Source: a virus
Taxonomy: Duplodnaviria; Caudoviricetes
Direction: 5' to 3' (one strand)
DNA length: 51,441 nt
IMG/VR virus record: IMGVR_UViG_3300039448_000011
Span: 1-51,441 of that record
Each line of letters begins with the position of its first letter. The stretch's first letter is position 1. Below the pieces are notes generated by a model. That model saw only the letters and a list, made by a program, of their open reading frames with translations, made no database searches and was not told the DNA's origin. This document shows positions 2,762-39,600 of this stretch, piece by piece. The position numbers and the translations under genes are program-made.

Positions 2762-2982
2762 CACTTTGGTCTGATGAATTCTGGGGGCTGCTCATGGGTA
2801 GCTATATATTGAGCATTATCATTGTTTTGTTTTCTGGCGGAGTACCCACAAAGTGGCAGACGTGGCCCATGGTTCACTTGGTTGCGCTCTCCTTTCCGAT
2901 ACTTGCAGTCGCCTCCTCCGTTCTGGTTGCCATCCCTGGCTTAATGGTTCTTGGGCTTATTGTGGCAGCCACCACTAGGTAG
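2758..2982 (+). CDS. Small membrane protein
   Basis: ATGA overlap with upstream gene; two long hydrophobic stretches. Confidence 0.6.
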   Translation: MTLWSDEFWGLLMGSYILSIIIVLFSGGVPTKWQTWPMVHLVALSFPILAVASSVLVAIPGLMVLGLIVAATTR

Positions 2983-5900
2983 CATTAATAGCCCTTAGCT
3001 TGGGCGTCACCTTTTCTATGAGCTGGTTGCGTCTAAGTTTCAGTAGGTCAATCCGTCTACGCTTCTCTTCACCGCTCAAATCCTTATTCTTTTCGATGGC
3101 CTTGATTCGATTTCTAATATCCTGAAGTCTGCGGTTAACTTTATTCATTAGTTTTCTCATGCCTATCAGGTCGCCATTTTCTTCCATCACTTCAGCTTGA
3201 GAGGATAAATCTCCCTCTTCCCTGTAGCGCTTCAGGTCGGCATAGAGCCTATCCGCCTTGCGGATTGAGTCATAAAACAACTCTGAATCTTGTGTGTAGG
3301 TTGGACGGCCGGCATCGCGATAAAATCTACGAATCGGCTGGTATTCAGTCCAATATTTGGCGGGCTTGTCGCTTTCAGCAAGCTGGCCAATCACCATGTC
3401 CGGTATAGCAACACCCCAAGCGCCAACCTGACCAAGGAAGCCGCCAATCAGGTAGTCCATCTGGACTGGTGATAATGCATAGTTTGAGTCATCACCAAAC
3501 ACACCTGTAGAAATGGAGCTTAACCCTCTGGCTGCAAGGGTCGTATCTTCTTTTGTTCGATTCCCCTTGCTTAGGCGCTGCTGCCCCATGGTTTCAATCT
3601 GCCGCCCGGTGAACGAATCTTTGTTCGCATACACATCAAGCACTGGCTGAAACATTTGTGGCACCGGGCTAAACGAAAATGTCCCTGTTAGCATATGGCT
3701 AATACGCTCTCTGAATAACTTTCCTGTGGCGGTATCATCAACGGCCTGTTGAAGCAGGCGTTCAGTTATTGTCGCAATAGCGCCGACCTCAAACGGCTTC
3801 GGTATCGTAATTACATTATCGGTTCCGGGGATACGAAACCACCAGTACGAGTCTTTAAGCCAATCCGGTGCCTTCTTGTAGTCTTCGTCGTCTTGGTTGT
3901 GCAGAAACAATGCCATGGTCGCTGCAGACAGCGCACCAACGACCGCGGTAAATCTAGCCGCCGCTTTCTTATCATTAACACTGGCTTCGATTTTTCCTAT
4001 GCCGAGCATTTGCGCAGCGACTTTCGTTGTCGGCTTCACGCCTGAGCGGTAGAGTTTATCCAGACCTTGGAGTCGAGCGTTCAGAAACGGCACCACATCG
4101 ATCAAGAAACGAATTGCGGGCCATGCCCCGTGCGCTGAAAAGTCCATTAGATCTCTAGCCTGAAATGCAGAGTAGAGCGTACCCTTGCCAGCATCCTCAG
4201 ATTGCTTGAATGCCGCCGCGCGGTTTACGTTCTCAAGGCTGTTGTTCACATCTTGCCAGCGGTCCCAGCCTGCCTTGAGTGGTTTAAGCCCAAGCTTAAG
4301 TAGCTGCTTAGGATCTTTAATTACTTTGGCTCTGCGCATCTGACCGTCAATCTGGTATCGGATTGAGTCGGCATCTTCACCATAAACATGACCAAACGAA
4401 AACGCCCCACCCGTTGCCATTAGCCTTGCTCGCTCGTACCCGTTCCGATCCAGCAAGCCAAATGACTTCAGGCCCTGAGTGACGTTGCCAACCGCATTCT
4501 TACTCATGTCGGTCACCGCTACGGCGCTCATGGAGTCACGAAGCAGGTTGGCCACAACAAACTGAGGTGTACTGGTGGTTAGATTTGTAAAGGTTCTTTT
4601 AAACCAGCGCATTGCGGTCATTGCGTAACCATTCATTCCGGTATGGTTAAGGCTGGTCAGTGACGAATAGACCATGGGATCAACTATGTCGTACCACTCT
4701 TTTTCGCCATTACGAAGAATGAATGTGCTTTGCTTCTTGTCGCGCGCAGCCTCGGAGGTCTTCTCTGCAACACCAAGATCAACCGCGTTATCAACCCCTT
4801 GTTTGGCAGCCATGTTTTTCAGACTGGCATCAACCAGGTGGTGAAAGTTCATTAGGGTGTTTTGCAGGAGGTCATTTAGATTTTGAGTGCCGCCTTTCAG
4901 CTTCTTATAAGCTTGCTGGCGACTAAGCCCGCCCATCACTCTTGGGCCGGTCGTGTCTGTGTTGTCTTCATCCAACCGGTAAAATGGGACATAAAACTCG
5001 TTCGACCACATATCCCGATTTTCAGCAGTGATAACCCCGGATTCTTCAGCGATAGCTAACACGTCATCACGGTATTGCTGAAACTCCTTAAATACAGACT
5101 CGTAAAGCTTCGACCGTTCACGGCCGTCTTTTAGATTTCCGCCATCTAAACTCTTGAGGGCATCAATATCCTTCTGAGAGAACAGATTCTCTCGACCTTC
5201 CGCCATTAGCTTTTCGCCACGATTACCGGCGATCCAGCCCATGAAGCGCTCAACCTCAGCGCCAGAGCCAAGCTTATTAAGCGTATACATCAAACCTTGG
5301 CTGTCTTTTTTAACGTCGACAATGCCATCACCATTCATGAAGATTCGGCCAGCATTCATCATTGCCGATACGGCACCAGAGGCAGCATTGCTCATCTTGG
5401 CGCGCGCCCAAGCGGAGCGGGTTATATTCTCCTCACTGGTGATATTACCGTCGAGCAACTGCTTATCCAGCTCCATTAATCCGGCGTAGCGGTCAACCAA
5501 GCCCTGACGGACCTTTAGGCGCCAGTCATCCATAACGCCGCGTACCTTTTCAGCGGCGGATTCGATAGGGCCCTTTGGTCCTATTTTTGAAAGCGCCTCT
5601 TTCTGATCATTGCTAAGACTGCTATCACTAGCAAGGTCGTCAGATAGACGCATTAGAGCTGAATCTCCACGAGCCGGTTTGCGGTACATGGATTCACTGA
5701 TTTCAAAGTCTTTATTTCGCCCTTTATTTTCAATAAATCCAAAGCGCTTATAAAAACCAATGAGTCGTGATCGTGAAGTTGTTCCTTGAAAGTCATCCTT
5801 CAGCGCAGGGGATAGCGCAACAATTTTGGAGTTTTCATCGGCATAACCAATTATCATTTCTAGCGCCTTTGTGCCGATGCCGGAATTTCGATATTCTTTA

Positions 5901-8900
5901 TCAACTATAATCGAATCAAGTTTAATTTTTCCGCGAGACTCGTAAAGCGATATTGTTTTGATACCCTTTACGCCTTCAATCTCGCTTCGCAATTCGTCGA
6001 TATTTTTTGCATTGCCACCCTTGCCAACCGACGCAAGCGGCTTACCAGCCCCCTTACCTTCGTTACCGTACTTCTTAAGATGCCGTCTGCCCCTCTCGAT
6101 CAGTGCCAATGTATCGGTATCTGTCCAGTCGATATCAGGATTAATTCGGCGAATAAGGTCACGCAATGCAGCAATCATGCGACGCACAAGGCCCATCTTG
6201 CGGCCCTTTTCCGCCAAGTGTGCAATGTACTCCAGTACCGCAATGCGACGCTCTTCCTGATTATCGTAATTAAAATCATACCTTGAGATTTCTTTGTCGA
6301 TAGCGGGCTGGCCAGCGCGGTAATAAATCTCATCCAGCATGGCAAGGTATTCCTTACCACCGGCTTTTTCATTGGCCTTCAGGTAGCTAATGACACCACC
6401 ATGACCAATCACTTCATGGAGAAAAACACGCTTAGCATGGTGCTTGTCAATGATATTCCCGGCAACGATATATGTCTTTCCGGTTTTCGGATCATAAACA
6501 CCTTCGGATTGATTGAAGTGAGTACCAAGCTCAAGCTTTAATTTCCCCGGGAGATCTAGGCTAGTTTCAACAATCTCAATTGAACCCATCCCGCCAGTCA
6601 TATCCTTAAGCCATTCACGAACTTGGCTAGCGGTATTTTTTCGCTTAATACCAGAGGCGTTTCCAGTTTGTATTTGGCTTGAGAGAGATTTGATTTTTTC
6701 GTCTACATCTTTGGATAAAGATGCTAGTGCTTGCCCGTCAGGCTTATCAATTACAATAACCTTGGTATTGACGCCGGTAGGATTTAAAGATGATTTAAAT
6801 GCACCTTCAGGCAGAGACTGCTCCTCCGCGCCAAGTTCATCAAGCAACTCTCTGAATTTTTTATTTTTACTATTCTGTCTATCGCCTGCCATGCTGGACA
6901 CGATGGCGACAAGCCTTCCACCGGGCTTTAGGTGTTTATAGGCATGTATAACGTGGTCAATATCTTGATCCTTGCTAAATGGCGGGTTCATTAGAACTCT
7001 GTCGTACTCGGCCTTCGGTTCTAGCTCTAAAAAGTCATCACCAATAAGCTTGTGGCCTTTTTCTTTAAGAATTTCGCGAAGCTGGCCAGCAAGTTCCACG
7101 GTGTCTACGTCGGCACCACTTGCCTTCGCTTCATCTGCAAGTAAGCCATTGCCTGCAGAGGGTTCCAATACCTTCATGCCATCTTCAATATTGGCTAAGT
7201 CAGCAATTTCAACAGCTGTTGATTCCGGCGTCGGAAAGAAATCATTAAAGGCCTTCCGATTACCAAGCAAGGTTCTTTGTAGTGCCTGTTCAAGGTCGGC
7301 TAACTTGGTCTTGCGCTTCGGTCCTTCGGCCGATTTTTTAAGCTTGATAAATTCAGTTAAAACCGCCCGCAGAGTCGGAAGATTCTTAATTCCCATGCGC
7401 TCTAGCCGCTTGCGATTCATTGCCACATCATAGTGAGTGGTGTGCTTTTCTCCATGCTTAGTGACGAACTCTAATACCTTATCCCTCACTCTGGCGGGAA
7501 TGATAATGGGCTTTCCGTCTTTCGCGGAGCGAGCCTGAGCGCGCAATGCGTTCGCTGCTTGCTTAAATCCTTTGGTCGATTCCATTTTTTGAGCTAAGTC
7601 TTTAGCTGAATCTGGGTAATAGGTTTGCATTGGTAGCTGAGCAAACTGAACCATTTGCTCAGGTGTTACGCCTGACGCCCAGGAGCGGCGACTCATTCGA
7701 TCGCTCTCAAACAATTCCGGATCAGCATCGTAAATAAGTCGATTAGCCAGACTGTTAAGTAGCTCGATCTGTACTTTCTGATTAGCGTTTTTTAGGAGTG
7801 GATGGCCACCTTCTGAAATTTCCGCCATCACTTTGGCAAGTGTTTTTTGTGTCTCTGCTCGCGCAACTGCACCCGCTGCCATGTCGGCACGGCGCAGGGT
7901 GTTCGTATTCCGATCGGCGTTAAGGTTTTCGTCCGCATCCGACTTTAGCCGCTCGGCAATGTCACGCATTCTATCCGATGCGCGCTCAAGCTTTTGTTGT
8001 CTTCGCTCTTCGGATTTTTCGGATAGGTCGGCATCCTCGCCTTGCATCCAGTTCTTAAACTGATTGGCCTGTTCAATTGAGGGGAAGTAAAAGTTTCCGC
8101 GCCAATACCCACCGCTCATCGATCGAGCCATCGCGGCCGATTCTTTAAATTTATCCTTGCCTAGCCGATCAATTACCTTCACGTTAAAGATGATCTCACC
8201 GGTTTTGCCGTGAGTGCCCTCTTCCGGCTCACCCATTGCCACCGGCTCGTCAGATTGAAACCCCTTTCTCACATCCTCAATTGGAGTGTCACTCATCGCC
8301 TTTTCTGCAATAAGACGATCATACTGAGTTCGCTGTTCTAAACTCAGAGACTCGAAACCCCGAAGCTTTATAGCGTCCCTAAATTCTTCGAGTGTCTGCG
8401 GGTCCTTTAGTCCGTCAATCTGTTTTTTTCGCTCAGCTATAGCAGCGTCAATATTTTCCTTTCGCTCTCTGGCATACTCGGCAATAGTTGCATCAGTCAA
8501 TGAATCAATGTGATCTCGCGTCATCTGGGCGATGTCAGAGCCATGAGTCCATGAAATAAACACATCGCTATTACCAATAAACCGATATTTCTGAACTAGG
8601 CCGTCATAGGCCATGTTCACAAGTCTGTCTTTTTTCGTATCGGAGAAAACGTGACCGGTGGTCATCGGCTCAAGGTCAGCTTTCGTTAATTTGCGCAGCT
8701 CGGACTTGCTGGCATCAGGGTCAGTAACCAGCGCCTCAAAAGTATCGGATAGCTCCGCCCTAGTAACGGCCTCACCGCCACTTAGGCGTTTCATAACACT
8801 GTTAATTCCTTCGTGTGCCGGAAGCTGTGCAGGCTTTGTAGGTTCAGCATCAGACTCAGCCTCAACCTCAGGTTCGGCATCAGGCCCAAAATCGTCGTTC

Positions 8901-11900
8901 ACTTCGATGGTGCTTGCTCGTGGCGCGTTGGAAATATCGGCATTTCCAGCCACTGCCGCACCCTCAGGAATAGGATGAAGCTCAAAGCCACCGCTCACCT
9001 CGACCAACTCATAGCCCGCGTGACTCTTTAAAGCCTTGCGGGCAGCACCTTTGCTTTTGTACGGATTGCCAGCGGTGTTGCGAATGATTGGCCTGTCAGG
9101 CTTGGCTTCGGGTGCTGCATCTTCAATTGCGTACTCCTCACGCAACGCTTTCCATGCTTGGCGGTTGACTCCTTCAGGAGAGTCGCTGTTCAGCTGATTG
9201 AATTCCTCAAAGCTCAGATTTGCTTGAGCCTCATCGACAAGCGTCTCGTATTCTTCGGAAAGTTTATCAAGCGCATCTTTATAGCCCGGCGATGATTTCT
9301 TTAGGCCGGACTTGGCGGCCATTTTCTTAAGGTAGGCTGTTTTGGTGGCGGTGAGAATTTCTGGAAGGCCAGAACGAGAAACCCCGGCATTGGCCGGGGT
9401 TTTTTCATTACTTTGACTTAATCCGCCTGACTTTATCCAGTCATCGACCTTTTCAACCAAGTGGTTTGTAAGATCAACAAATTCGTTATACCGCCAGTCG
9501 TGACGCTTTCCATAAGGGCCAACTATTTTATCCTTGCCTCGATCGGCGTCATTAATGTACATATTGGCGTCAGCGAAATCATCAAGGTCTTCCCAGCCAG
9601 AAACCTTGGCAGGGTCGATAGTGCCGGATTCCACATCGTTTAGAATTTCTTTCTTGGCCACTTCGATGCGACGGTCGATAATTCCTTGCAACTCAGGGTC
9701 ATTGAAATCCACCCCCTTTCCATTCGTATATTCATTTGCGGGGGAGGTTATCCGATCATCATCCGTTAAACCATTACCTGTTTTTTTATTTGCGCTGGCA
9801 ACGACCTTGCTAATTTTCGTTGTCGGCTCCTTGTATTCGGCTGGCTTCTCAGCTTTAACGATAGTTCCAAAATCATGCCAATTGCCATTAATCTTGGCCT
9901 CTTTTCTTGATTGGGATATACCCTCAATCACACCACCCTTAAAGAAAGTTTTTTGCTTTTCGCTTTTAACGGCCTTCGCATACTCGCCGCGCTCAAATCT
10001 CTGCTCTATCGGCTCGCCATTTACCACTTTGTAGTTGGAAAATGAATCATTCCCTTTTTGGCTTGGCTCTGCTGGAGCGCTAAGTAGATCCTCTTGCCCT
10101 TGAGAAGCGGCAACGTCAGCAGTACGGCCAGAGCCAGACAGTGCAAAACCTTCCACCTCGGCATCAGCCTTTGCTTTTTTTGCTGCTTTCTCTTCTGCCT
10201 TAACCTTTTCTTTTTCTTCAGACTGACGCTTAGCCTCCATTTTCCGAAGGTCGTCTTCAGTATAAGAGCTTAAGAGTTCTTCTTCGGGTTCTGGCTCTTT
10301 GCTTTCTGCTCTTGTCCACCCTGGATCTTCTCGACCGGCGGTTTCTTTTTCCAGCGCTCGTTTAGCTCCAGCGCTTTCAACACTTGTGGGTGTAACTTCT
10401 TGGCCATTTTTATGTGCCTCGGTAAATACAAATAATCTTAAGCTAAATTCAACCGGGTCGTCGCCAAACACTTGAGCGATTTTAGTCACTACAGGTTCAG
10501 GCAATCCAGCATCAAGCGCTTCTTTAATATCGTCAGCAAGTGCCATACCGACACCATCAATACCATCAACCGCCGAATAGCTCTCTTCAGTAAAGCGCGT
10601 TTCCATGCTTGAGGCAATCCGCTTAATTCGATTGGCGTAACGATTCGGCACAGGGTTGGATTCGGCAAAGCCAGCCTCTTGAGGTGATAGTTCGCCTCGC
10701 ATTACTTTTCTGAATTTCGTTATTTGCTCTCTTTCAGGTATGGCATCGGTGCGTGCGTAATCGTTTCGCTCGTCGGTAATGACATCAAGTGCATATTTTA
10801 CCGCTCTCGCTTCGATTGGCTTCAGAGGCTTAGCGTTAACAGCCTTATCAATCGCTCGCTTAAATCCTTTTACGGATATCCGCTTTACATTCTCCGGAGC
10901 TTCCTGAAACCATGCGGGGTTTTGTGACGGCAAAAAATCAAAATACTTTTTATCGGGATTGTTTTTTGCCATCGGGTCCAAAGGAATTGTGGACATGCCG
11001 CCTTTGTATTGGATTTCGCTACCCATCTTCTCAAGCCGCCCCCGGTGCCATGTTCGCAATAAGCGCCCGTCATCAAGTCCTTTTGGCATCTTGAGGTTTC
11101 GTATTGCATCACGGTCACTATCGTTAAGTGACTCTCCCTCGCGAACATCCATCGTAGGTGGCAGCTCAACAACCTCGGGCAGCTCTGGGGTTGGCTGCTG
11201 ATCAATGGTTATTTCTTCTGCGGGGATAAACCGAACATCGCCTTTTTCTGGTAAGTCGGGGACAACTACTGGCGATTGACCTTGCTGCTCAGTAAATGTC
11301 TGCTCAGTAACTTTCTTGGCATTCTGTGCAGCTTCCGTTGGCGGCATATAGTAAGGCGCATCAACGGTAGAAGGTATCGAACGCGAAGGGTCAGGCTCAA
11401 AATCTGAAACCTCTGGCCGTGCTGCTTCCATTTCACTAAAGGTGTCAGCGTCACGCTCCATCGTAACTTCAGCCCGTGGTATGCCTTCAATGTACTCACC
11501 AACCGCAATGTACTCAGCTGGGAATTGAGCTGATGGCTCAGGGCTTTGCGGGTCAGGCTCACCCATCTGGGTGACTTCGCGGTAAATCTTCAGCGCACGC
11601 TCATTGAATCGCTTGGCGGATTCAGTGTCGCCTTCATTGGCGAACTCTTCAGCCATTTCAAAATTACGCTTGGCTGCACGAAGACGAACGACTTCATCTT
11701 CAAATCCTTGTGACTCTGCAATATAGATATCGTCATCAATACCCTTGTACTGCTGGCGCTCGGCCTTGATCTGGGATACGGCATCGACTAGCGATAGCTT
11801 TGGTTGTTCTGGCTGTGCTGGTTGTTCCTGCGCCTGAGGATCAACACCTTGCTCCTCGGCCTGAATTTCGGGCTTCTCTACGGGTGAGCCTTTAAAGGCA

Positions 11901-12991
11901 GCGCCCATGCCACCGCCCATGACGCCACCCATGACGCCTTCGTTTAGGGCATTAGTAACAACGCCCTGCATTGGGTCTCTATTGGTATCAGCCTCTTCAT
12001 TAATCATCGCACGGTTAATGCCATGCTGCTCCATGCCGCCCTGAATGGTCTCGGTACCACCTTGCGCAACGGTTTGAGCCAGTGCGTTCTTGATTCGACT
12101 GCCGGAGCCTGCACCACGAATAATGCGGTCAATATAATGGCCGCCGATCGCATCAAGAGTGAGATTGGTAATAACAACGGCAGGGTCTGTCTGCACTGCT
12201 GTGCTCACGCGCTCGGCCAGTGTTTTTCTGGCCATCGATCTAATCTCTCCAACACTATAGCTTGGCTGATCAACGCTTAATGTGTGAAAGATTTCGCGAA
12301 ACGCCTCCGACTCATCCAACTCAGATGATGACAAATTCATCACTTCTTCTTGGGCCTGAAGGCCCATCTGGCCACCAGTAATGCCAGCGCCAGCAAGTGC
12401 TTGGCCGGTGGTACCTGCGCTAGCTCGAATTACATTGGCGGCATATTTCGCGGCAACATCAGGCGTCATACCCTTGCGCAATCCGGATTTAATAAGCGCC
12501 TTAGTTGCAACCTTGGCGCCTACTTTCGCCGCCGCACCGGTAAGACCAAAACCTGTAACGACCTGCCCGGTTAGCTGGCCAGCCATTTTGCTAATCTGAA
12601 GACCTACAGATTCAGGATCAGTCCACGCCTCGCCAAATTGAGTGTCGCCATTCTCATCATCCTGAAAGAACTGCTTACTCATGGCTTCTTGGCCAGACGG
12701 GCTCATTTGATCAATCTGGCCTTTCGACCAGTTATTAGTGGCCTGAGCTAAATCGCCAAATGTTTCCGATCCAGACAGCGTAGAAACAGTTTCCGCCATC
12801 CCTGCTGCGCTATCACCGACGCCAGACTGAAAGGCATCAACTGCATCACCACCAAAACCCTGCTCATTGCCTTGCTTCTGCTCTTCGGCATCAGCTGCGG
12901 TTTTGTTGTCTTGTATGTGACTGGTTAAAGGAGGGGCATTTCTACCAAGCTCAAACATCTGCTCAAGCGATACTTTATTCTCATTACTCAT
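2975..12991 (-). CDS. Giant polyvalent virion/ejection protein: amino-DNA methyltransferase, HExxxH metallopeptidase, GNAT and LPD38-like C-terminus
   Basis: 3338 aa; FFPTP / VLEPSAGNG / NPPF (about 7240-6975); HEVIGH (6418-6401); RNSGIGTKAL (about 5890-5860); C-terminal PFLNARLQG and IPKPFEVG; last gene of the ejection module. Confidence 0.85.
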   Translation of the reverse strand: MSNENKVSLEQMFELGRNAPPLTSHIQDNKTAADAEEQKQGNEQGFGGDAVDAFQSGVGDSAAGMAETVSTLSGSETFGDLAQATNNWSKGQIDQMSPSGQEAMSKQFFQDDENGDTQFGEAWTDPESVGLQISKMAGQLTGQVVTGFGLTGAAAKVGAKVATKALIKSGLRKGMTPDVAAKYAANVIRASAGTTGQALAGAGITGGQMGLQAQEEVMNLSSSELDESEAFREIFHTLSVDQPSYSVGEIRSMARKTLAERVSTAVQTDPAVVITNLTLDAIGGHYIDRIIRGAGSGSRIKNALAQTVAQGGTETIQGGMEQHGINRAMINEEADTNRDPMQGVVTNALNEGVMGGVMGGGMGAAFKGSPVEKPEIQAEEQGVDPQAQEQPAQPEQPKLSLVDAVSQIKAERQQYKGIDDDIYIAESQGFEDEVVRLRAAKRNFEMAEEFANEGDTESAKRFNERALKIYREVTQMGEPDPQSPEPSAQFPAEYIAVGEYIEGIPRAEVTMERDADTFSEMEAARPEVSDFEPDPSRSIPSTVDAPYYMPPTEAAQNAKKVTEQTFTEQQGQSPVVVPDLPEKGDVRFIPAEEITIDQQPTPELPEVVELPPTMDVREGESLNDSDRDAIRNLKMPKGLDDGRLLRTWHRGRLEKMGSEIQYKGGMSTIPLDPMAKNNPDKKYFDFLPSQNPAWFQEAPENVKRISVKGFKRAIDKAVNAKPLKPIEARAVKYALDVITDERNDYARTDAIPEREQITKFRKVMRGELSPQEAGFAESNPVPNRYANRIKRIASSMETRFTEESYSAVDGIDGVGMALADDIKEALDAGLPEPVVTKIAQVFGDDPVEFSLRLFVFTEAHKNGQEVTPTSVESAGAKRALEKETAGREDPGWTRAESKEPEPEEELLSSYTEDDLRKMEAKRQSEEKEKVKAEEKAAKKAKADAEVEGFALSGSGRTADVAASQGQEDLLSAPAEPSQKGNDSFSNYKVVNGEPIEQRFERGEYAKAVKSEKQKTFFKGGVIEGISQSRKEAKINGNWHDFGTIVKAEKPAEYKEPTTKISKVVASANKKTGNGLTDDDRITSPANEYTNGKGVDFNDPELQGIIDRRIEVAKKEILNDVESGTIDPAKVSGWEDLDDFADANMYINDADRGKDKIVGPYGKRHDWRYNEFVDLTNHLVEKVDDWIKSGGLSQSNEKTPANAGVSRSGLPEILTATKTAYLKKMAAKSGLKKSSPGYKDALDKLSEEYETLVDEAQANLSFEEFNQLNSDSPEGVNRQAWKALREEYAIEDAAPEAKPDRPIIRNTAGNPYKSKGAARKALKSHAGYELVEVSGGFELHPIPEGAAVAGNADISNAPRASTIEVNDDFGPDAEPEVEAESDAEPTKPAQLPAHEGINSVMKRLSGGEAVTRAELSDTFEALVTDPDASKSELRKLTKADLEPMTTGHVFSDTKKDRLVNMAYDGLVQKYRFIGNSDVFISWTHGSDIAQMTRDHIDSLTDATIAEYARERKENIDAAIAERKKQIDGLKDPQTLEEFRDAIKLRGFESLSLEQRTQYDRLIAEKAMSDTPIEDVRKGFQSDEPVAMGEPEEGTHGKTGEIIFNVKVIDRLGKDKFKESAAMARSMSGGYWRGNFYFPSIEQANQFKNWMQGEDADLSEKSEERRQQKLERASDRMRDIAERLKSDADENLNADRNTNTLRRADMAAGAVARAETQKTLAKVMAEISEGGHPLLKNANQKVQIELLNSLANRLIYDADPELFESDRMSRRSWASGVTPEQMVQFAQLPMQTYYPDSAKDLAQKMESTKGFKQAANALRAQARSAKDGKPIIIPARVRDKVLEFVTKHGEKHTTHYDVAMNRKRLERMGIKNLPTLRAVLTEFIKLKKSAEGPKRKTKLADLEQALQRTLLGNRKAFNDFFPTPESTAVEIADLANIEDGMKVLEPSAGNGLLADEAKASGADVDTVELAGQLREILKEKGHKLIGDDFLELEPKAEYDRVLMNPPFSKDQDIDHVIHAYKHLKPGGRLVAIVSSMAGDRQNSKNKKFRELLDELGAEEQSLPEGAFKSSLNPTGVNTKVIVIDKPDGQALASLSKDVDEKIKSLSSQIQTGNASGIKRKNTASQVREWLKDMTGGMGSIEIVETSLDLPGKLKLELGTHFNQSEGVYDPKTGKTYIVAGNIIDKHHAKRVFLHEVIGHGGVISYLKANEKAGGKEYLAMLDEIYYRAGQPAIDKEISRYDFNYDNQEERRIAVLEYIAHLAEKGRKMGLVRRMIAALRDLIRRINPDIDWTDTDTLALIERGRRHLKKYGNEGKGAGKPLASVGKGGNAKNIDELRSEIEGVKGIKTISLYESRGKIKLDSIIVDKEYRNSGIGTKALEMIIGYADENSKIVALSPALKDDFQGTTSRSRLIGFYKRFGFIENKGRNKDFEISESMYRKPARGDSALMRLSDDLASDSSLSNDQKEALSKIGPKGPIESAAEKVRGVMDDWRLKVRQGLVDRYAGLMELDKQLLDGNITSEENITRSAWARAKMSNAASGAVSAMMNAGRIFMNGDGIVDVKKDSQGLMYTLNKLGSGAEVERFMGWIAGNRGEKLMAEGRENLFSQKDIDALKSLDGGNLKDGRERSKLYESVFKEFQQYRDDVLAIAEESGVITAENRDMWSNEFYVPFYRLDEDNTDTTGPRVMGGLSRQQAYKKLKGGTQNLNDLLQNTLMNFHHLVDASLKNMAAKQGVDNAVDLGVAEKTSEAARDKKQSTFILRNGEKEWYDIVDPMVYSSLTSLNHTGMNGYAMTAMRWFKRTFTNLTTSTPQFVVANLLRDSMSAVAVTDMSKNAVGNVTQGLKSFGLLDRNGYERARLMATGGAFSFGHVYGEDADSIRYQIDGQMRRAKVIKDPKQLLKLGLKPLKAGWDRWQDVNNSLENVNRAAAFKQSEDAGKGTLYSAFQARDLMDFSAHGAWPAIRFLIDVVPFLNARLQGLDKLYRSGVKPTTKVAAQMLGIGKIEASVNDKKAAARFTAVVGALSAATMALFLHNQDDEDYKKAPDWLKDSYWWFRIPGTDNVITIPKPFEVGAIATITERLLQQAVDDTATGKLFRERISHMLTGTFSFSPVPQMFQPVLDVYANKDSFTGRQIETMGQQRLSKGNRTKEDTTLAARGLSSISTGVFGDDSNYALSPVQMDYLIGGFLGQVGAWGVAIPDMVIGQLAESDKPAKYWTEYQPIRRFYRDAGRPTYTQDSELFYDSIRKADRLYADLKRYREEGDLSSQAEVMEENGDLIGMRKLMNKVNRRLQDIRNRIKAIEKNKDLSGEEKRRRIDLLKLRRNQLIEKVTPKLRAINAT
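9379..9405 (+). terminator. Intragenic intrinsic-terminator-like hairpin
   Basis: AAACCCCGGC-ATTG-GCCGGGGTTTTTT inside the giant ORF. Confidence 0.55.
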
Positions 12992-35998: not shown

Positions 35999-36300
35999 TG
36001 ACTGCTAACGCTCACTGAATAATCAACGTTCGTCACCGTCGGAGTAACAACAACGTAATCAATTGCGCCCGCGTCCAGTTGAATCATCCCGTTTTCAGAG
36101 ACTATGTTTTCAGATTCGGCGCCAGGGTTAACTCTATTTGTTGAGCTATCAAAACCGTAGGGCACAACAGTAATCGTAATATCGCCAGTCGCGCCGGAGA
36201 AATACAATGTGTGCAGTGACGATCCGTTTGCAACCTGAATTAGTTGCTCACCCTGAAGCCCGTTTTTGATTTGTTTCTTTTGGATATCAGGCATTGTCAT
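35995..36300 (-). CDS. Hypothetical protein
   Basis: 101 aa, beta-rich, coupled to the downstream gene. Confidence 0.65.
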   Translation of the reverse strand: MTMPDIQKKQIKNGLQGEQLIQVANGSSLHTLYFSGATGDITITVVPYGFDSSTNRVNPGAESENIVSENGMIQLDAGAIDYVVVTPTVTNVDYSVSVSSQ

Positions 36301-36532
36301 TGCTCCCGCGAGACTGTCTGTCAGTCAACACTGCAATATCCTTGTCGTGTTGACTAATTATTGATGCGTGCTCATCAAGTCGTGTCTGATGTCGAATGTG
36401 CTGCTCGTCATGCGATGAGAGTTTTGATGAAACGATGCCGTAAATGCGTCCAAGTCCAATGAGCTGCATAGCAAATGTTGCGAACAACCCTCCAACCGCT
36501 ACCAGCGTATTTGTATCGACGTTTTCGAGCAT
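36287..36532 (-). CDS. Single-TM coiled-coil protein (holin/antiholin-like), first late gene
   Basis: One hydrophobic helix followed by heptad pattern; ATG at 36532 just after the terminator. Confidence 0.6.
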   Translation of the reverse strand: MLENVDTNTLVAVGGLFATFAMQLIGLGRIYGIVSSKLSSHDEQHIRHQTRLDEHASIISQHDKDIAVLTDRQSRGSNDNA

Positions 36533-36548
36533 GCTAAATCCCAGACGC

Positions 36549-36580
36549 AAAAAAGCCCGGATCAGATTTAACTGCCGGGC
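36549..36580 (-). terminator. tR'-like terminator
   Basis: Minus strand GCCCGGCAG-TTAAAT-CTGATCCGGGC-TTTTTT. Confidence 0.8.
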
Positions 36581-36616
36581 TGTTTATGTATTTATATTCG
36601 TTGAGGTCATTTAAGA

Positions 36617-36658
36617 CCAGTATGACAAAAAGTTACTCTAGCTGCGCACTGGTGTCAA
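36617..36658 (-). promoter_or_regulatory. pR'-like late promoter with putative Q-utilisation element
   Basis: TTGACA-17 nt (contains TGCGCAGC)-TAACTT, then CATACTGG. Confidence 0.8.
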
Positions 36659-36745
36659 CACTCTGTTTTTAATTTGCTGCGGAAGTATGCAAGAGGTGTT
36701 GAAGTTGATAGCAGGCAATTCGCATTAATTTTAAATTATTTCCCT

Positions 36746-36780
36746 GTTTGTGTGTACAAACTAAAATAAAGGTGTATAGT
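36746..36780 (+). promoter_or_regulatory. Promoter/operator of the accessory operon
   Basis: -10 TATAGT at 36775; palindrome GTTTGT-GTGT-ACAAAC over the -35 region; AT-rich upstream. Confidence 0.55.
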
Positions 36781-36850
36781 TATTTACATGGAAGGCAACA
36801 ACGCCAACCAGCCGACCAAGCGGGACTTGGAATAGAAAGCGAGAAAAATC

Positions 36851-37258
36851 ATGACTACAATCACTATCAACGACCTACCAAAATCATGCGCCCTAACAAA
36901 AATTGAGCTTTGTGGCGATCATGAAACTATCATCGAATTAGTTCGCAGCGTCACCACATACCCAACAATCAAAAACAAATCTGGAAATCTTGAGCTAGAC
37001 GCTAGCAAAAAAGACATTGCAGGTGTTTACAACGCGGTATTTGCACACAATGATCGCGTCAAAAAATCAGAATCCAAGCCATCTACAACTCAAACCACCG
37101 AAAAACCAGCAGAGCGCTATGTTGAATTACTCGCTACCGCTGAATTTGAGAATTTAAACCACGGTCGCGCTTGGTATTGCTCTGAGCTAGACATTGAAAC
37201 CAAAGGCGCCTCTCCTGCATGGGAAGGCGAGCAAATCTGTTACGTTTATCCAAACTAA
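36851..37258 (+). CDS. Hypothetical protein, anti-defence candidate
   Basis: 135 aa; first gene of an operon opposing the late direction. Confidence 0.8.
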   Translation: MTTITINDLPKSCALTKIELCGDHETIIELVRSVTTYPTIKNKSGNLELDASKKDIAGVYNAVFAHNDRVKKSESKPSTTQTTEKPAERYVELLATAEFENLNHGRAWYCSELDIETKGASPAWEGEQICYVYPN

Positions 37259-37295
37259 TTAATAGGCGGGGTAACCCGCCAATCGGAGAATCAGA

Positions 37296-37514
37296 ATGAT
37301 TAAATATAGTGTTGTGAGCGAAAAACAGGATGTTGGCGGCGATATTATCGAAATATTTAGTGTTGTTGACGACGATGGAATGCCAATCAATGACGGGCAT
37401 TTTACCGTTGAGTCAGATGCAAACTACGTATCAGAGAAAATGAATACAGGTAAATTTGGCGGAGACGATGTGTCGAATTTATGCAAATTAATGGATAGCT
37501 GGATAATCTGCTAG
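37296..37514 (+). CDS. Small acidic protein, anti-CRISPR candidate
   Basis: 72 aa, D/E-rich, GGAG RBS; function inferred from context only. Confidence 0.75.
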   Translation: MIKYSVVSEKQDVGGDIIEIFSVVDDDGMPINDGHFTVESDANYVSEKMNTGKFGGDDVSNLCKLMDSWIIC

Positions 37515-37601
37515 AAAAAATCCCCACATAGTGGGGAACGGAACTACTTAGAAACAGACATTCTATGTCTATGTGGTTCATCCCCGCAAAACGGGGAACT
37601 G
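37514..37601 (-). CRISPR. Type I-E-like mini-array (repeat - 32-nt spacer - degenerate repeat/terminator)
   Basis: Minus strand CAGTTCCCCGTTTTGCGGGGATGAACCA + CATAGACATAGAATGTCTGTTTCTAAGTAGTT + CCGTTCCCCACTATGTGGGGATTTTTTC; 60-nt period. Confidence 0.75.
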
Positions 37602-37631
37602 CACCCTCACGGGCACGCTCATAGCAACATC

Positions 37632-37659
37632 AATTTACATGGTTTTTTTAATCTGTCAA
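37632..37659 (-). promoter_or_regulatory. sigma70 promoter facing the mini-array
   Basis: TTGACA (37659-37654)-16 nt-TAAATT (37637-37632). Confidence 0.7.
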
Positions 37660-38096
37660 TGGGTAATAAAATGAAAAAATCAACGTTAGATAAGTATTTG
37701 GCATTCGCCAGCCCTCTCACTGGCTATGGCCACGACTTCTACTTTAATGGTTATATCGCTGGCCTCAATGCCTACTATGCGCGCCTAAAGCAGCTAAAAA
37801 CGCTGGATAAACACGAAGCCGAGCTTGAGCGTGCTCGCATGGTTTATCCGACCGTTGAGTCGGCAGACGGTATCTCAGACGGGCTCGATGGCCGCCCACC
37901 TTCGGGTTACGTCCAAGAGCAAAGCCACTTAGCCGGGAATGATCATGCTGTTAAAGATGCCGAACCACGCGATAATCGTGTGATCATTCGCTGCAGTACG
38001 ACAAATAAAACGCGCTGGGATGCCCACAAAAAACCATCAGAATCCCGCGCTGATTTTATCACCCGTGTGCTGAATGCCTACTGCGACAATCAATAA
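37659..38096 (+). CDS. Protein with C-terminal ribbon-helix-helix domain (Aca-like regulator candidate; start may be 37671)
   Basis: GNDHAVKD...RVIIRCSTTNKTRW...SRADFITRVLN fits the RHH pattern. Confidence 0.65.
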   Translation: MGNKMKKSTLDKYLAFASPLTGYGHDFYFNGYIAGLNAYYARLKQLKTLDKHEAELERARMVYPTVESADGISDGLDGRPPSGYVQEQSHLAGNDHAVKDAEPRDNRVIIRCSTTNKTRWDAHKKPSESRADFITRVLNAYCDNQ

Positions 38097-38112
38097 GCAC
38101 CAATAACAAGCA

Positions 38113-38137
38113 AGGGCTGAGAGTTCTACTCAGCCCT
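38113..38137. terminator. Hairpin between convergent genes
   Basis: AGGGCTGAG-7 nt-CTCAGCCCT. Confidence 0.6.
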
Positions 38138-38156
38138 ACCCTAACCTTTATGTCAT

Positions 38157-38762
38157 TCAGAACGGAATATCATCGTCAAAGTCATCAAAGTTATTGCTTG
38201 GCTGCTGCATTGGCGACGGCTGCTGCACAGGCTGCTGGTAATTCCCTTGTTGAGGTGCTGACTGCTGAGCTGCACGCTGAGGGCTTTGCATTGATTGTGG
38301 TGCTTGCTGTTGAGGCTGCTGGTAACTTTGCTGCTGTTGAGGTGCCTGCCTAGGTTGTGGGGCTTGTTGTGGGGCTTGTTGCTGATAACCACCCTGCTGT
38401 CCGTCACCCTGCTGTCCACCGCTCTGCGGTCTACTATCCAGCATCATCATGTCGTTACAGACAATTTCAGTCGTGTAACGCTTAATCCCGTCTTTTTCCC
38501 ATTCGCGAGTGCGGAGCTTGCCTTCAAAGTAGGCACGCGAACCTTTCTTCAGGTACTGCTGACAGATTTCTGCAAGCTTGCCGTATACCGTAATGCGGTG
38601 CCATTCAGTCTGCTCGACTTTTTGACCGGTCGCCTTATCGTTATAGCTTTCATCTGTTGCGAGAGAGATATTTGCAACCGCATTGCCATTCGGCATATAA
38701 CGGACTTCTGGATCGCGACCCAGAGTACCGATTAATGTGACTTTGTTTACTGATCTGCTCAT
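38157..38762 (-). CDS. ssb: Single-stranded DNA-binding protein
   Basis: [21 protein letters not shown]-rich linker, DFDDDIPF tail. Confidence 0.97.
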
Positions 38763-38837
38763 TTTTACTCACCTTTCGTATTTATCCTAGCCCTGCCAGG
38801 ACGGTTATCGTCATGTATAGATTATTCGATTTTCTAT

Positions 38838-38889
38838 ACATAACACTTCAGAGCGCGGGACGTTCCGCCCGCGTCCATTCTTGTTATTC
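38838..38889 (+). repeat. attC-like site, terminal site of array 2
   Basis: ACATAAC-ACTTC-AGAGCGCGGGACGTTCCGCCCGCGTCC-ATTCTT-GTTATTC. Confidence 0.7.
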
Positions 38890-39039
38890 GTGTTCGGTGA
38901 TTTCCGAACACTTAAACGTTTTTTTGCCAACATAGAACGACCCTTGACGCTCGCACTCTGTAGCTATTGTCGAATGTGCCCACTCCCAGCCTATCCATAC
39001 GCCGAAAACCAGCATTAACAATGCGAAGAACATTTTCAT
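38884..39039 (-). CDS. Small membrane-anchored protein, cassette-borne
   Basis: GAGGTG RBS before ATG at 39039; MKMFFALLML...ECERQGSFYVG; ends GTTATTCG/CGAATAAC are complementary. Confidence 0.75.
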   Translation of the reverse strand: MKMFFALLMLVFGVWIGWEWAHSTIATECERQGSFYVGKKTFKCSEITEHE

Positions 39040-39048
39040 CACCTCTCC

Positions 39049-39112
39049 GAATAACAAACATTTGAATCGTGGACTGTCGCTACGCTCCAGCCCATTAAAA
39101 TCTGGGTTATAA
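39049..39112 (+). repeat. attC-like recombination site
   Basis: GAATAAC-AAACA-TTTGAATC-GTGGACTGTCGCTACGCTCCAGCCC-ATTAAAA-TCTGG-GTTATAA. Confidence 0.85.
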
Positions 39113-39115
39113 CTC

Positions 39116-39364
39116 TTAATGGCATTCACATAAGCCGCCATTGTAATCATAAGCACCTTCATACTGCTCACCGTTATAGTGCTCTCCAGCCTCGCCATAC
39201 CAATCTTCGCCGTTACCGCAGCAATCACACACTTGAACATCGTGCTCAGGTGTTGCCGCAATCCATTTAAGAATATCGTCTTGACTCATTGGCTCTTCGG
39301 TTTCCGGTAATTGCTCGTAATTTAAGAATCCAGTCCCAGAACATCTAGTACATATTATCGCCAT
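39116..39364 (-). CDS. Cys-rich zinc-finger-like protein, cassette-borne
   Basis: GGAGG RBS; CxxCxGxG and CDCCGNG motifs; bounded by GTTATAAC at both ends. Confidence 0.8.
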   Translation of the reverse strand: MAIICTRCSGTGFLNYEQLPETEEPMSQDDILKWIAATPEHDVQVCDCCGNGEDWYGEAGEHYNGEQYEGAYDYNGGLCECH

Positions 39365-39384
39365 ACTTGCCTCCAATTAATCCG

Positions 39385-39432
39385 TTATAACAAAGTATTG
39401 CAGCGGACAAACCGCTGACTACGGGGTTATGC
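39385..39432 (+). repeat. Short attC-like recombination site
   Basis: TTATAAC-AAAGT-ATTGCAGC-GGACAAACC-GCTGACT-ACGGG-GTTATGC. Confidence 0.85.
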
Positions 39433-39600
39433 GCTTGGTAAACCTTCAAAATCGTCAATATTACCATTAAAAACTGTAGTCGAACCCTTGTAACCAGCTA
39501 GCTTTTGCAATTTTGCGTATGCTTCTAGCCACGGTTCGTGATTATAAAAACCCCAGCCATTTTCTGTTCTATGACCTTGTGAGTGTAATCCCCAATCCAC
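39427..39600 (-). pseudogene. Probable 5'-truncated cassette gene overlapping the end of the Q-like gene
   Basis: Open frame ...ENGWGFYNHEPWLEAYAKLQKLAGYKG...EGLPSA* stops in the attC R box like the other cassette genes. Confidence 0.45.

Follow-up and report, generated by a model that had tools for sequence, protein, structure and literature searches.

What purpose would a phage without cas genes have for a single, self-contained unit resembling a type I-E CRISPR (short palindromic repeats, clustered and regularly interspaced) array? The unit in question lies on the minus strand, from position 37659 to 37514, of IMG/VR virus record IMGVR_UViG_3300039448_000011. The window analysed here is that complete record (51,441 bp; CheckV completeness 99%), which is, judging from its gene content, a near-complete lambdoid temperate phage. 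We read the element as a CRISPR-derived, stand-alone CRISPR RNA (crRNA)-like gene, a moron of a temperate phage from the sea, and give a probability of about 40% to its being an anti-CRISPR of the Cracr type, acting through competition and through repression of a host immune promoter. It is likely that, whatever its target, the RNA is made for binding by the type I-E Cas proteins of the host. That broader statement covers the common core of three readings (a Cracr, a guide against competing elements, and a decoy of the Racr type), and probability beyond the readings listed here is the remainder.

The earlier note on this DNA had described a promoter, a leader hairpin with a GTGA loop, a repeat, a 32-nt spacer and a second repeat, and all five are present on the minus strand within 37659-37514 (Table 1). 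The promoter-like site scores 10 of 12 and is the top such site within the 3.5 kb from 36000 to 39500; transcription is predicted to start near 37625. The final base of the leader hairpin (37601) is also the opening base of repeat 1. Repeat 1 has an 8-nt 5' handle, AUGAACCA, and a 7-bp stem closed by a 3-nt loop, and its handle matches the canonical I-E handle, AUGAACCG, at seven of eight positions. Repeat 2 retains the 3'-handle part, that is, the hairpin, and six T residues stand where the 5'-handle part would be. The distance from repeat start to repeat start is 60 (28 + 32). When folded as a 131-nt transcript, the sequence forms the leader hairpin and both repeat hairpins (z = -4.9).

Table 1. 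Positions in the window of the parts of the crRNA-like gene and of the accessory island around it (psiR, repeat; psiS, spacer-like segment; ORF, open reading frame).
Feature	Position	Strand	Basis
-35-like hexamer TTGACA	37659-37654	minus	sequence and promoter scan
-10-like hexamer TAAATT, 16 nt past the -35	37637-37632	minus	sequence and promoter scan
Leader hairpin GUGCCC-GUGA-GGGUGC, GUGA loop	37616-37601	minus	-9.5 kcal/mol
Repeat 1 (psiR1), 28 nt, I-E-type, CAGTTCCCCGTTTTGCGGGGATGAACCA	37601-37574	minus	covariance model; -11.6 kcal/mol
Spacer-like segment (psiS), 32 nt	37573-37542	minus	sequence
Repeat 2 (psiR2), CCGTTCCCCACTATGTGGGGA + TTTTTT	37541-37515	minus	covariance model; -11.5 kcal/mol
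Accessory island, ~1.45 kb: RNA gene and three plus-strand orphan ORFs	36704..38156		comparison with phage relative G001 and metagenome contigs
ORF135, first island gene	36851..37258	+	one relative, 87% identity
ORF72, acidic 72-aa protein, pI 4.06, convergent on the RNA gene	37296..37514	+	two relatives, 79% and 75% identity
ORF141 (145 aa from 37659 in the ORF list), divergent to the promoter of the RNA gene	37671..38096	+	four relatives, 82-54% identity

The family likeness of the repeats was measured with a covariance model for which real I-E arrays in public genomes supplied 21 distinct consensus repeats, and every position of the window was scored with filters off. The training repeats all come from loci found by an ATGAACC pattern, so the model represents that subclass. 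Repeat 1 has the top score in the 51-kb window (22.5 bits, E = 2.5e-5), on the minus strand only and over the full length of the model (positions 1-29). Repeat 2 is second (14.4 bits, E = 0.02), over model positions 5-23, which correspond to the hairpin only. Repeats 1 and 2 are thus the two best sites of the model in the window, and the best unrelated site after them has an E-value of 2.7. The pattern GTTCCCCN7GGGGAT occurs twice in the window, at the two repeats, against 0.00 expected from 100 shuffles. Nothing in Rfam reaches the gathering score, the search with the region giving only weak unrelated matches, and a 25-mer of repeat 1 has no copy in IMG/VR or in the species-representative genomes. 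A 20-mer of repeat 1 has a sole metagenome match, in L158; this was rejected, being a hairpin of high GC content that arose by chance and lacks the handle.

The two repeats differ at 5 of 22 positions (77% identity). All three differences that fall in the stem preserve pairing: repeat 1 has G-C as its fifth and U.G as its sixth pair, where repeat 2 has A-U and C-G, respectively, in agreement with the compensatory variation of the hairpins that had been pointed out. Both pairs vary likewise among the 21 natural I-E repeats (fifth pair, AU in 11 and GC in 10; sixth pair, CG in 18, UG in 2 and UA in 1). The pairing-preserving divergence fits long selection on the structure, not a recent capture of two identical host repeats. 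Nor is the element a functional CRISPR array: it has only two repeats, identical at 17 of 22 positions, and profiles of Cas6e, Cse1 and Cas7 give zero matches in the window, as expected from the reported lack of cas genes.

Repeat 2 is flagged in the scan as an intrinsic-terminator-like site (7-bp stem, 3-nt loop, TTTTTT), which supports its proposed double role as repeat and terminator. It abuts the stop codon of the convergent ORF72, position 37514 and the two bases below it being that stop. A good intrinsic terminator at this place is what would be expected if Cas proteins made no use of the element, and a captured host array had decayed into a terminator for the convergent genes, or if the spacer-like segment were an operator of ORF141. 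The segment carries a perfect 6+3+6 palindrome, AGACAT-AGA-ATGTCT (the internal stem of the earlier note), which is unusual in spacers. The C-terminus of ORF141 has a weak match to DUF7557 in Pfam (E = 0.0013, below the curated cutoff), which may be read as possibly DNA-binding, and the searches described below brought no target. However, a use independent of Cas proteins is unlikely, for it would leave unexplained the full-length I-E repeat with its intact handle, the exact 60-nt period and the matching orientation of promoter, handle and U-tract, and the stem differences keep pairing within the I-E family's own alternatives.

The Cracr-type reading accounts for these features through the following steps. 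The putative sigma-70 promoter would give a transcript of ~110 nt that ends at the U-tract past repeat 2. Host Cas6e would bind both I-E hairpins and cleave repeat 1, and likewise repeat 2, at its base, releasing a product made of the AUGAACCA handle, 32 nt and a 20-nt 3' hairpin, ~60 nt in total, which has the geometry of a full I-E Cascade guide. The RNA would occupy host Cascade in competition with host crRNAs and would steer it to a non-phage site, most likely a promoter in the host I-E locus, which would make it a Cas- or CreT-repressing RNA anti-CRISPR. The exact spacing of 60, with the 5' handle on repeat 1 and the 3' hairpin on repeat 2, supports this reading, as does the agreement of promoter, orientation and U-tract on the minus strand. 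Further support comes from the recurrence of the design in cellular I-E cas loci and viral contigs together with the validated I-E Racrs and Cracrs of phages, from an accessory island that is absent from relatives and near-identical in a second study, and from a marine Alteromonadaceae I-E locus with a 28-nt repeat, each described below.

Cracrs, the crRNA-like RNAs of viruses, are competitors of crRNAs and direct Cas proteins onto cas or toxin promoters; the survey counts 219 candidates and 20 I-E arrays, and one CracrIE array, from a Salmonella prophage, has been tested (bioRxiv 10.1101/2024.10.29.618823). The window element resembles them in being a phage or prophage mini-array outside a cas locus, with I-E-like repeats and a predicted crRNA-like RNA that has an 8-nt 5' handle, the length found in I-E crRNAs (bioRxiv 10.1101/2024.10.29.618823). 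One Cracr repeat also has a loop one base shorter, and competition with crRNAs for Cascade is expected in both cases. Cracrs are encoded on mobile elements, outside CRISPR-Cas loci; here, the gene lies in a virus record with lambdoid genes, and no cas genes were found. The window element differs from the Cracrs in that it has no known promoter or CreR match and a single spacer, and that its second repeat is fused to a U-tract terminator.

A similar organization is known from CreR, in which conservation covers the 5' handle in psiR1 and the 3' handle in psiR2; in S. enterica, CreR has 15 nt in common with an AAG-flanked site upstream of casA (bioRxiv 10.1101/2023.03.10.532045). Like the CreR and CreA units of cellular I-E loci, the window element is a degenerate two-repeat unit with the 5' handle on psiR1, the 3' handle on psiR2 and a promoter directly upstream. 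The cellular units, however, lie inside cas loci and have a partial AAG-flanked target nearby in 3 of the 21 loci checked, whereas the window unit lies in a phage and no target was found in cis.

Racrs, the viral solitary repeat mimics, provide a third comparison. RacrIE1 and RacrIE2 have been validated (Camara-Wilpert et al. 2023, PMC10651486), so that functional I-E Racrs exist. The window element is likewise a viral I-E repeat mimic behind its own promoter, unlinked to cas genes and located in an accessory region. Its RNA could act as a pure decoy of this type, the hairpins sequestering Cas6e, and perhaps Cas7 and Cas5, in useless complexes and the 32-nt segment having no target. In accordance, repeat 1 stands immediately behind the promoter-like site, as viral solitary repeat units stand directly behind a promoter (PMC10651486), and no target was found. 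Repeat 1 in itself fits a Racr, yet a partial repeat follows 60 nt downstream; the rule of SRUFinder counts a partial repeat within 100 bp as a mini-array only if its identity is at least 90% (PMC10651486), and at 77% (17/22) repeat 1 would be scored as solitary. On the other hand, a Racr consists of one repeat and captures Cas6 and Cas7 in aberrant subcomplexes (PMC10651486), whereas the window element has a second hairpin at exact spacer distance and a complete guide-shaped RNA as its predicted product. A decoy would need neither an I-E-like hairpin at exactly 32 nt nor GUUCCCC...GGGGAU in its terminator, for which an ordinary terminator would suffice, and the exact crRNA geometry points to assembly of a full-length Cascade. 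We consider a pure decoy quite unlikely; the second I-E hairpin at exactly 32 nt is more than a mere decoy or a mere terminator would need.

The Cracr-type reading predicts a target in the host, for which the spacer was searched. The spacer-like part of a Cracr is expected to have at least nine PAM (protospacer-adjacent motif)-proximal bases in common with a host CreR or CreA and its cas or creT promoter target. The scans of sequence collections are exact-pattern scans, which would miss a target that deviates at a specified position or matches at fewer than ~20 bases. Within these terms, the spacer pattern with N at every sixth position has no match in IMG/VR, and a 23-nt PAM-proximal pattern has none in the JGI metagenomes. 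A blastn search against GenBank phages and PLSDB plasmids gave chance matches only (best E = 3). With up to 11 mismatches allowed, no match was found in 1,795,773 bases of fetched loci, which include the whole of G001, the closest phage relative. The target search that the earlier note had proposed has brought no target in the collections, the fetched loci or the five genomes with similar repeats, in which a 15-nt seed pattern matches at control rates. The best match in the five genomes (L159) was rejected, since it diverges past 15 nt and has a seed mismatch. Among 1009 handle-adjacent sequences of all fetched loci, no shared seed was found, the best agreeing at 8 of 10 seed positions.

In the window itself no target was found either, as had been reported: the seed scan gives runs of 8 nt only, with non-AAG flanks. 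The PAM-distal end of the spacer is 75% complementary to 36662-36681 over 20 nt; this match was dismissed as chance because the seed is absent. Conversely, 228 spacers from arrays of viral contigs match the window only in chance runs of 10-18 nt.

These searches bear most directly on the possibility that the RNA is a true guide in a conflict between mobile elements, in which the crRNA of a prophage would let host Cascade and Cas3 destroy an incoming phage or plasmid (superinfection exclusion). Viral mini-CRISPR arrays take part in interviral conflict: they have one spacer, reside in viruses without cas genes, and their spacers match related viruses. The window element shares with them the single spacer and the lack of cas genes; unlike for theirs, no match to relatives was found for its spacer. 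A competitor guide would agree with the canonical 32-nt spacer and unit geometry, with the temperate nature of the phage (cI-like repressor, lambdoid early genes), with the many I-E mini-arrays of one or two spacers in viral contigs, and with the co-occurrence of island-less related phages in the seawater runs. However, no protospacer is found in IMG/VR, JGI metagenomes, GenBank phages, PLSDB plasmids, G001 or the fetched loci, the repeats have diverged, unlike neighbouring repeats of an active array, and there is no adaptation machinery for spacer renewal. We regard a competitor guide as somewhat unlikely.

The design of the window element recurs in cellular genomes. A scan of 185,579 species genomes for the repeat form with a 15-nt hairpin returned 48 stretches. 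Most multi-repeat matches are one-base-deleted copies within ordinary 29-nt arrays; true 28-nt arrays of period 60, the period of the window element, are few (L103, L123/L129/L131 and L127). No more than three repeat-like matches are present in 27 of the 48 stretches. In the isolated units, a promoter-like sequence stands immediately before a first repeat of 28 nt with an intact ATGAACC handle; a degenerate second repeat follows, often after 32 nt, and in L117 it runs into T. Cas3, Cse1 or Cas6e is encoded by 8 of the 10 flanking ORFs scanned, and the units are positioned between cas3 and cse1 or just past cas6e. Of 21 such loci, 3 have, close by, a partial match to the PAM-proximal end of the spacer-like part, 12-16 nt long and AAG-flanked. 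The isolated cellular units are the published CreR/CreA class.

The three loci with partial self-targets are L124 3009-3240 (Dethiosulfatarculus; 16 nt), L134, minus strand, ~2500-2620 (a gammaproteobacterial metagenome-assembled genome, MAG; 14 nt) and L135 282-3361 (Methanoculleus; 12 nt). Each is an isolated I-E mini-unit in a cas locus, and they are likely CreR-type autoregulators, including ones of archaeal I-E loci.

Viral contigs contain comparable units. Tandem I-E repeats with this type of handle are present in 64 stretches of IMG/VR, which include 43 clusters of three repeats or fewer, 9 of them at a locus edge. In L183, L224 and L213, the second repeat drops its handle and enters T-rich sequence. 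Two-repeat I-E-like units at L170 375-470, L196 12054-12150 and L183 (minus strand, ~135-230) have a common upstream block (gcgtggattgaaatcatactctattg). The first 15 nt of their 32-nt spacers are common except for position 6, after which the spacers diverge; a conserved seed with a free sixth base is the pattern that a regulatory crRNA-like RNA would show. A further group of related viral contigs (L171, L174, L178, L195, L201 and L210; IMG/VR) has small I-E arrays in which one 32-33-nt spacer has an identical second copy ~1.55 kb away within the contig, which is either a self-match or a duplicated piece of the array.

The loop length ties the element to a particular kind of host. Both repeat loops are of 3 nt, one base less than in the common 29-nt repeat, and a one-base loop deletion is linked to poor Cas6e processing (in the available part of bioRxiv 10.1101/2024.10.29.618823). 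The short loops therefore weigh against Cas6e processing unless the host repeat is itself 28 nt. In the marine Alteromonadaceae MAG L127, a hairpin one loop base off window repeat 2 is found, and the I-E locus encodes Cas3 and Cse1. Immediately upstream of cas3-cse1, at L127 1-260, there are four 28-nt I-E repeats in a short array that is decaying. The objection would fall away if the host, like this MAG, had repeats of 28 nt; the 28-nt pattern is present in 1 of 401 genomes sampled from Alteromonadaceae (the family of genome G006).

Besides the loops, several observations weigh against the Cracr-type reading. The region has no excess of promoter-like sites (7 against 6.3 expected), so that the promoter is plausible and transcription is what we infer from it. 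Among the runs that contain the sequence, no RNA run is listed. The final base of the handle is A in repeat 1 and G in all 21 array consensus repeats; A is also found at this position in the isolated mini-units L097, L099, L102 and L136. The window spacer is of 32 nt, whereas those of the tested I-E Cracrs are of 24 and 21 nt and match the known casA promoter and the host CreR (as far as given in bioRxiv 10.1101/2024.10.29.618823). The searches turned up no cas promoter and no host CreR that has the seed of the window spacer, so that the defining feature of a Cracr is so far missing. An I-E system in the host is an assumption. The element is known from two near-identical copies only, which allow no cross-lineage covariation. 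Finally, sequence and fold searches tie no neighbouring protein to any anti-CRISPR protein.

Host Cascade could also serve the phage as a programmable repressor outside CRISPR, the full-length, palindrome-bearing guide parking it on an operator or promoter that is palindromic and belongs to a host gene or to the immunity region of a rival prophage. This seems very unlikely to us. It is an equally long shot that, in such a scheme, the divergent ORF141 and antisense read-through from ORF135-ORF72 would tune the amount of guide, in the service of host or prophage gene control and not of defence.

Regarding novelty, the crRNA-like gene and its structural reading stand; the earlier note had left its function open among a decoy, a competitor guide and a promoter repressor, and none of these was singled out by the target searches. 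The three options are exactly three published classes, namely Racr, viral mini-array and Cracr. The novelty implied for the element does not hold, as phage I-E repeat mimics (PMC10651486) and I-E crRNA-like arrays (bioRxiv 10.1101/2024.10.29.618823) have already been described and tested. A specialist in the Racr, CreR and Cracr work of 2023-2026 would not be surprised, and no new category is opened. If the RNA is made and loaded, the viral crRNA-like RNAs described of late gain an example from a marine lambdoid phage. Its traits of note are a full-length 32-nt guide, a second repeat that would serve both as 3' handle and as transcription terminator, and a location in a conserved island of three orphan genes, among whose products there may be partner proteins. 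On the same condition, the RNA would also point to I-E systems with 28-nt repeats as a target of phage counter-defence in the sea.

The RNA gene is part of an accessory island flanked by the SSB gene on one side and a conserved late-promoter/terminator unit on the other. G001, whose portal protein is 73% identical, has 99 bp in place of the 1573 bp of the window, from the SSB stop codon to the conserved promoter-plus-terminator unit. In accordance, contigs of relatives in runs X3, X4 and X5 join 36703/36706 straight to 38153/38157; parts uncovered in these runs were left out of the evidence. A contig of X2 (a marine metagenome of a second study) spans 37216-38394 with one differing letter. The island is therefore optional, and nearly invariant in both places where it is seen.

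The conserved unit is located at 36557-36665 (minus strand), just downstream of the island, and its counterpart in G001 is at L095 780-900. It consists of TTGACAC..GCGCAGCTAG.GTA followed, ~60 nt on, by a strong terminator (CAGCCCGGCAGTTAAATCTGATCCGGGCTTTTTT). It resembles the late promoter of a lambdoid phage, with a short leader that ends at a terminator (PR'/tR'-like), which would place the island directly ahead of the late-gene switch.

The relatives of the three island proteins are all in Logan assemblies; IMG/VR has no relatives of ORF72 or of ORF145, the listed form of ORF141. The start codon of ORF141 is probably the second ATG (37671), since this is where all four relatives begin. Its N-terminus has a conserved block, Y-x-F-Y-F-D-G-Y-I-A-G-L-N-A-Y-Y-A-R-L-K-Q-L-K-T-L, of no known family. 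No Pfam or PHROG family was found for ORF135 or ORF72, no PHROG family for ORF141, and no match to the island proteins in a PDB sequence search. The AlphaFold model of ORF145 is too poor for use (pLDDT 54), and the model of ORF72 (pLDDT 74.8) has no Foldseek match in the PDB at E <= 0.001. The Logan relatives P0004 and P0008 come from a contig of 1709 nt, and P0007 and P0010 from one of 920 nt; this suggests that the island genes travel together, the pairing on one contig being taken from matching sizes only.

The rest of the window is organized as in lambdoid phages. The plus strand encodes a cI-like repressor, RecT and RecE, and the minus strand encodes O-like and P-like replication proteins, NinB, NinG and SSB, then terminase, portal and major head proteins. 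No integrase-sized ORF was seen among the ORFs listed, despite the cI-like repressor; possible reasons are that the phage does not integrate or that the record is short of its end. The runs that contain the phage DNA are labelled marine metagenome. The capsid relatives are phages of Aeromonas and Vibrio and Stx phages, at 47% identity or less, and narrow the host no further than "a gammaproteobacterium". The window also carries one tRNA-Arg(TCT) and, in the tail region, a single ORF of 3338 aa on the minus strand (2975-12991).

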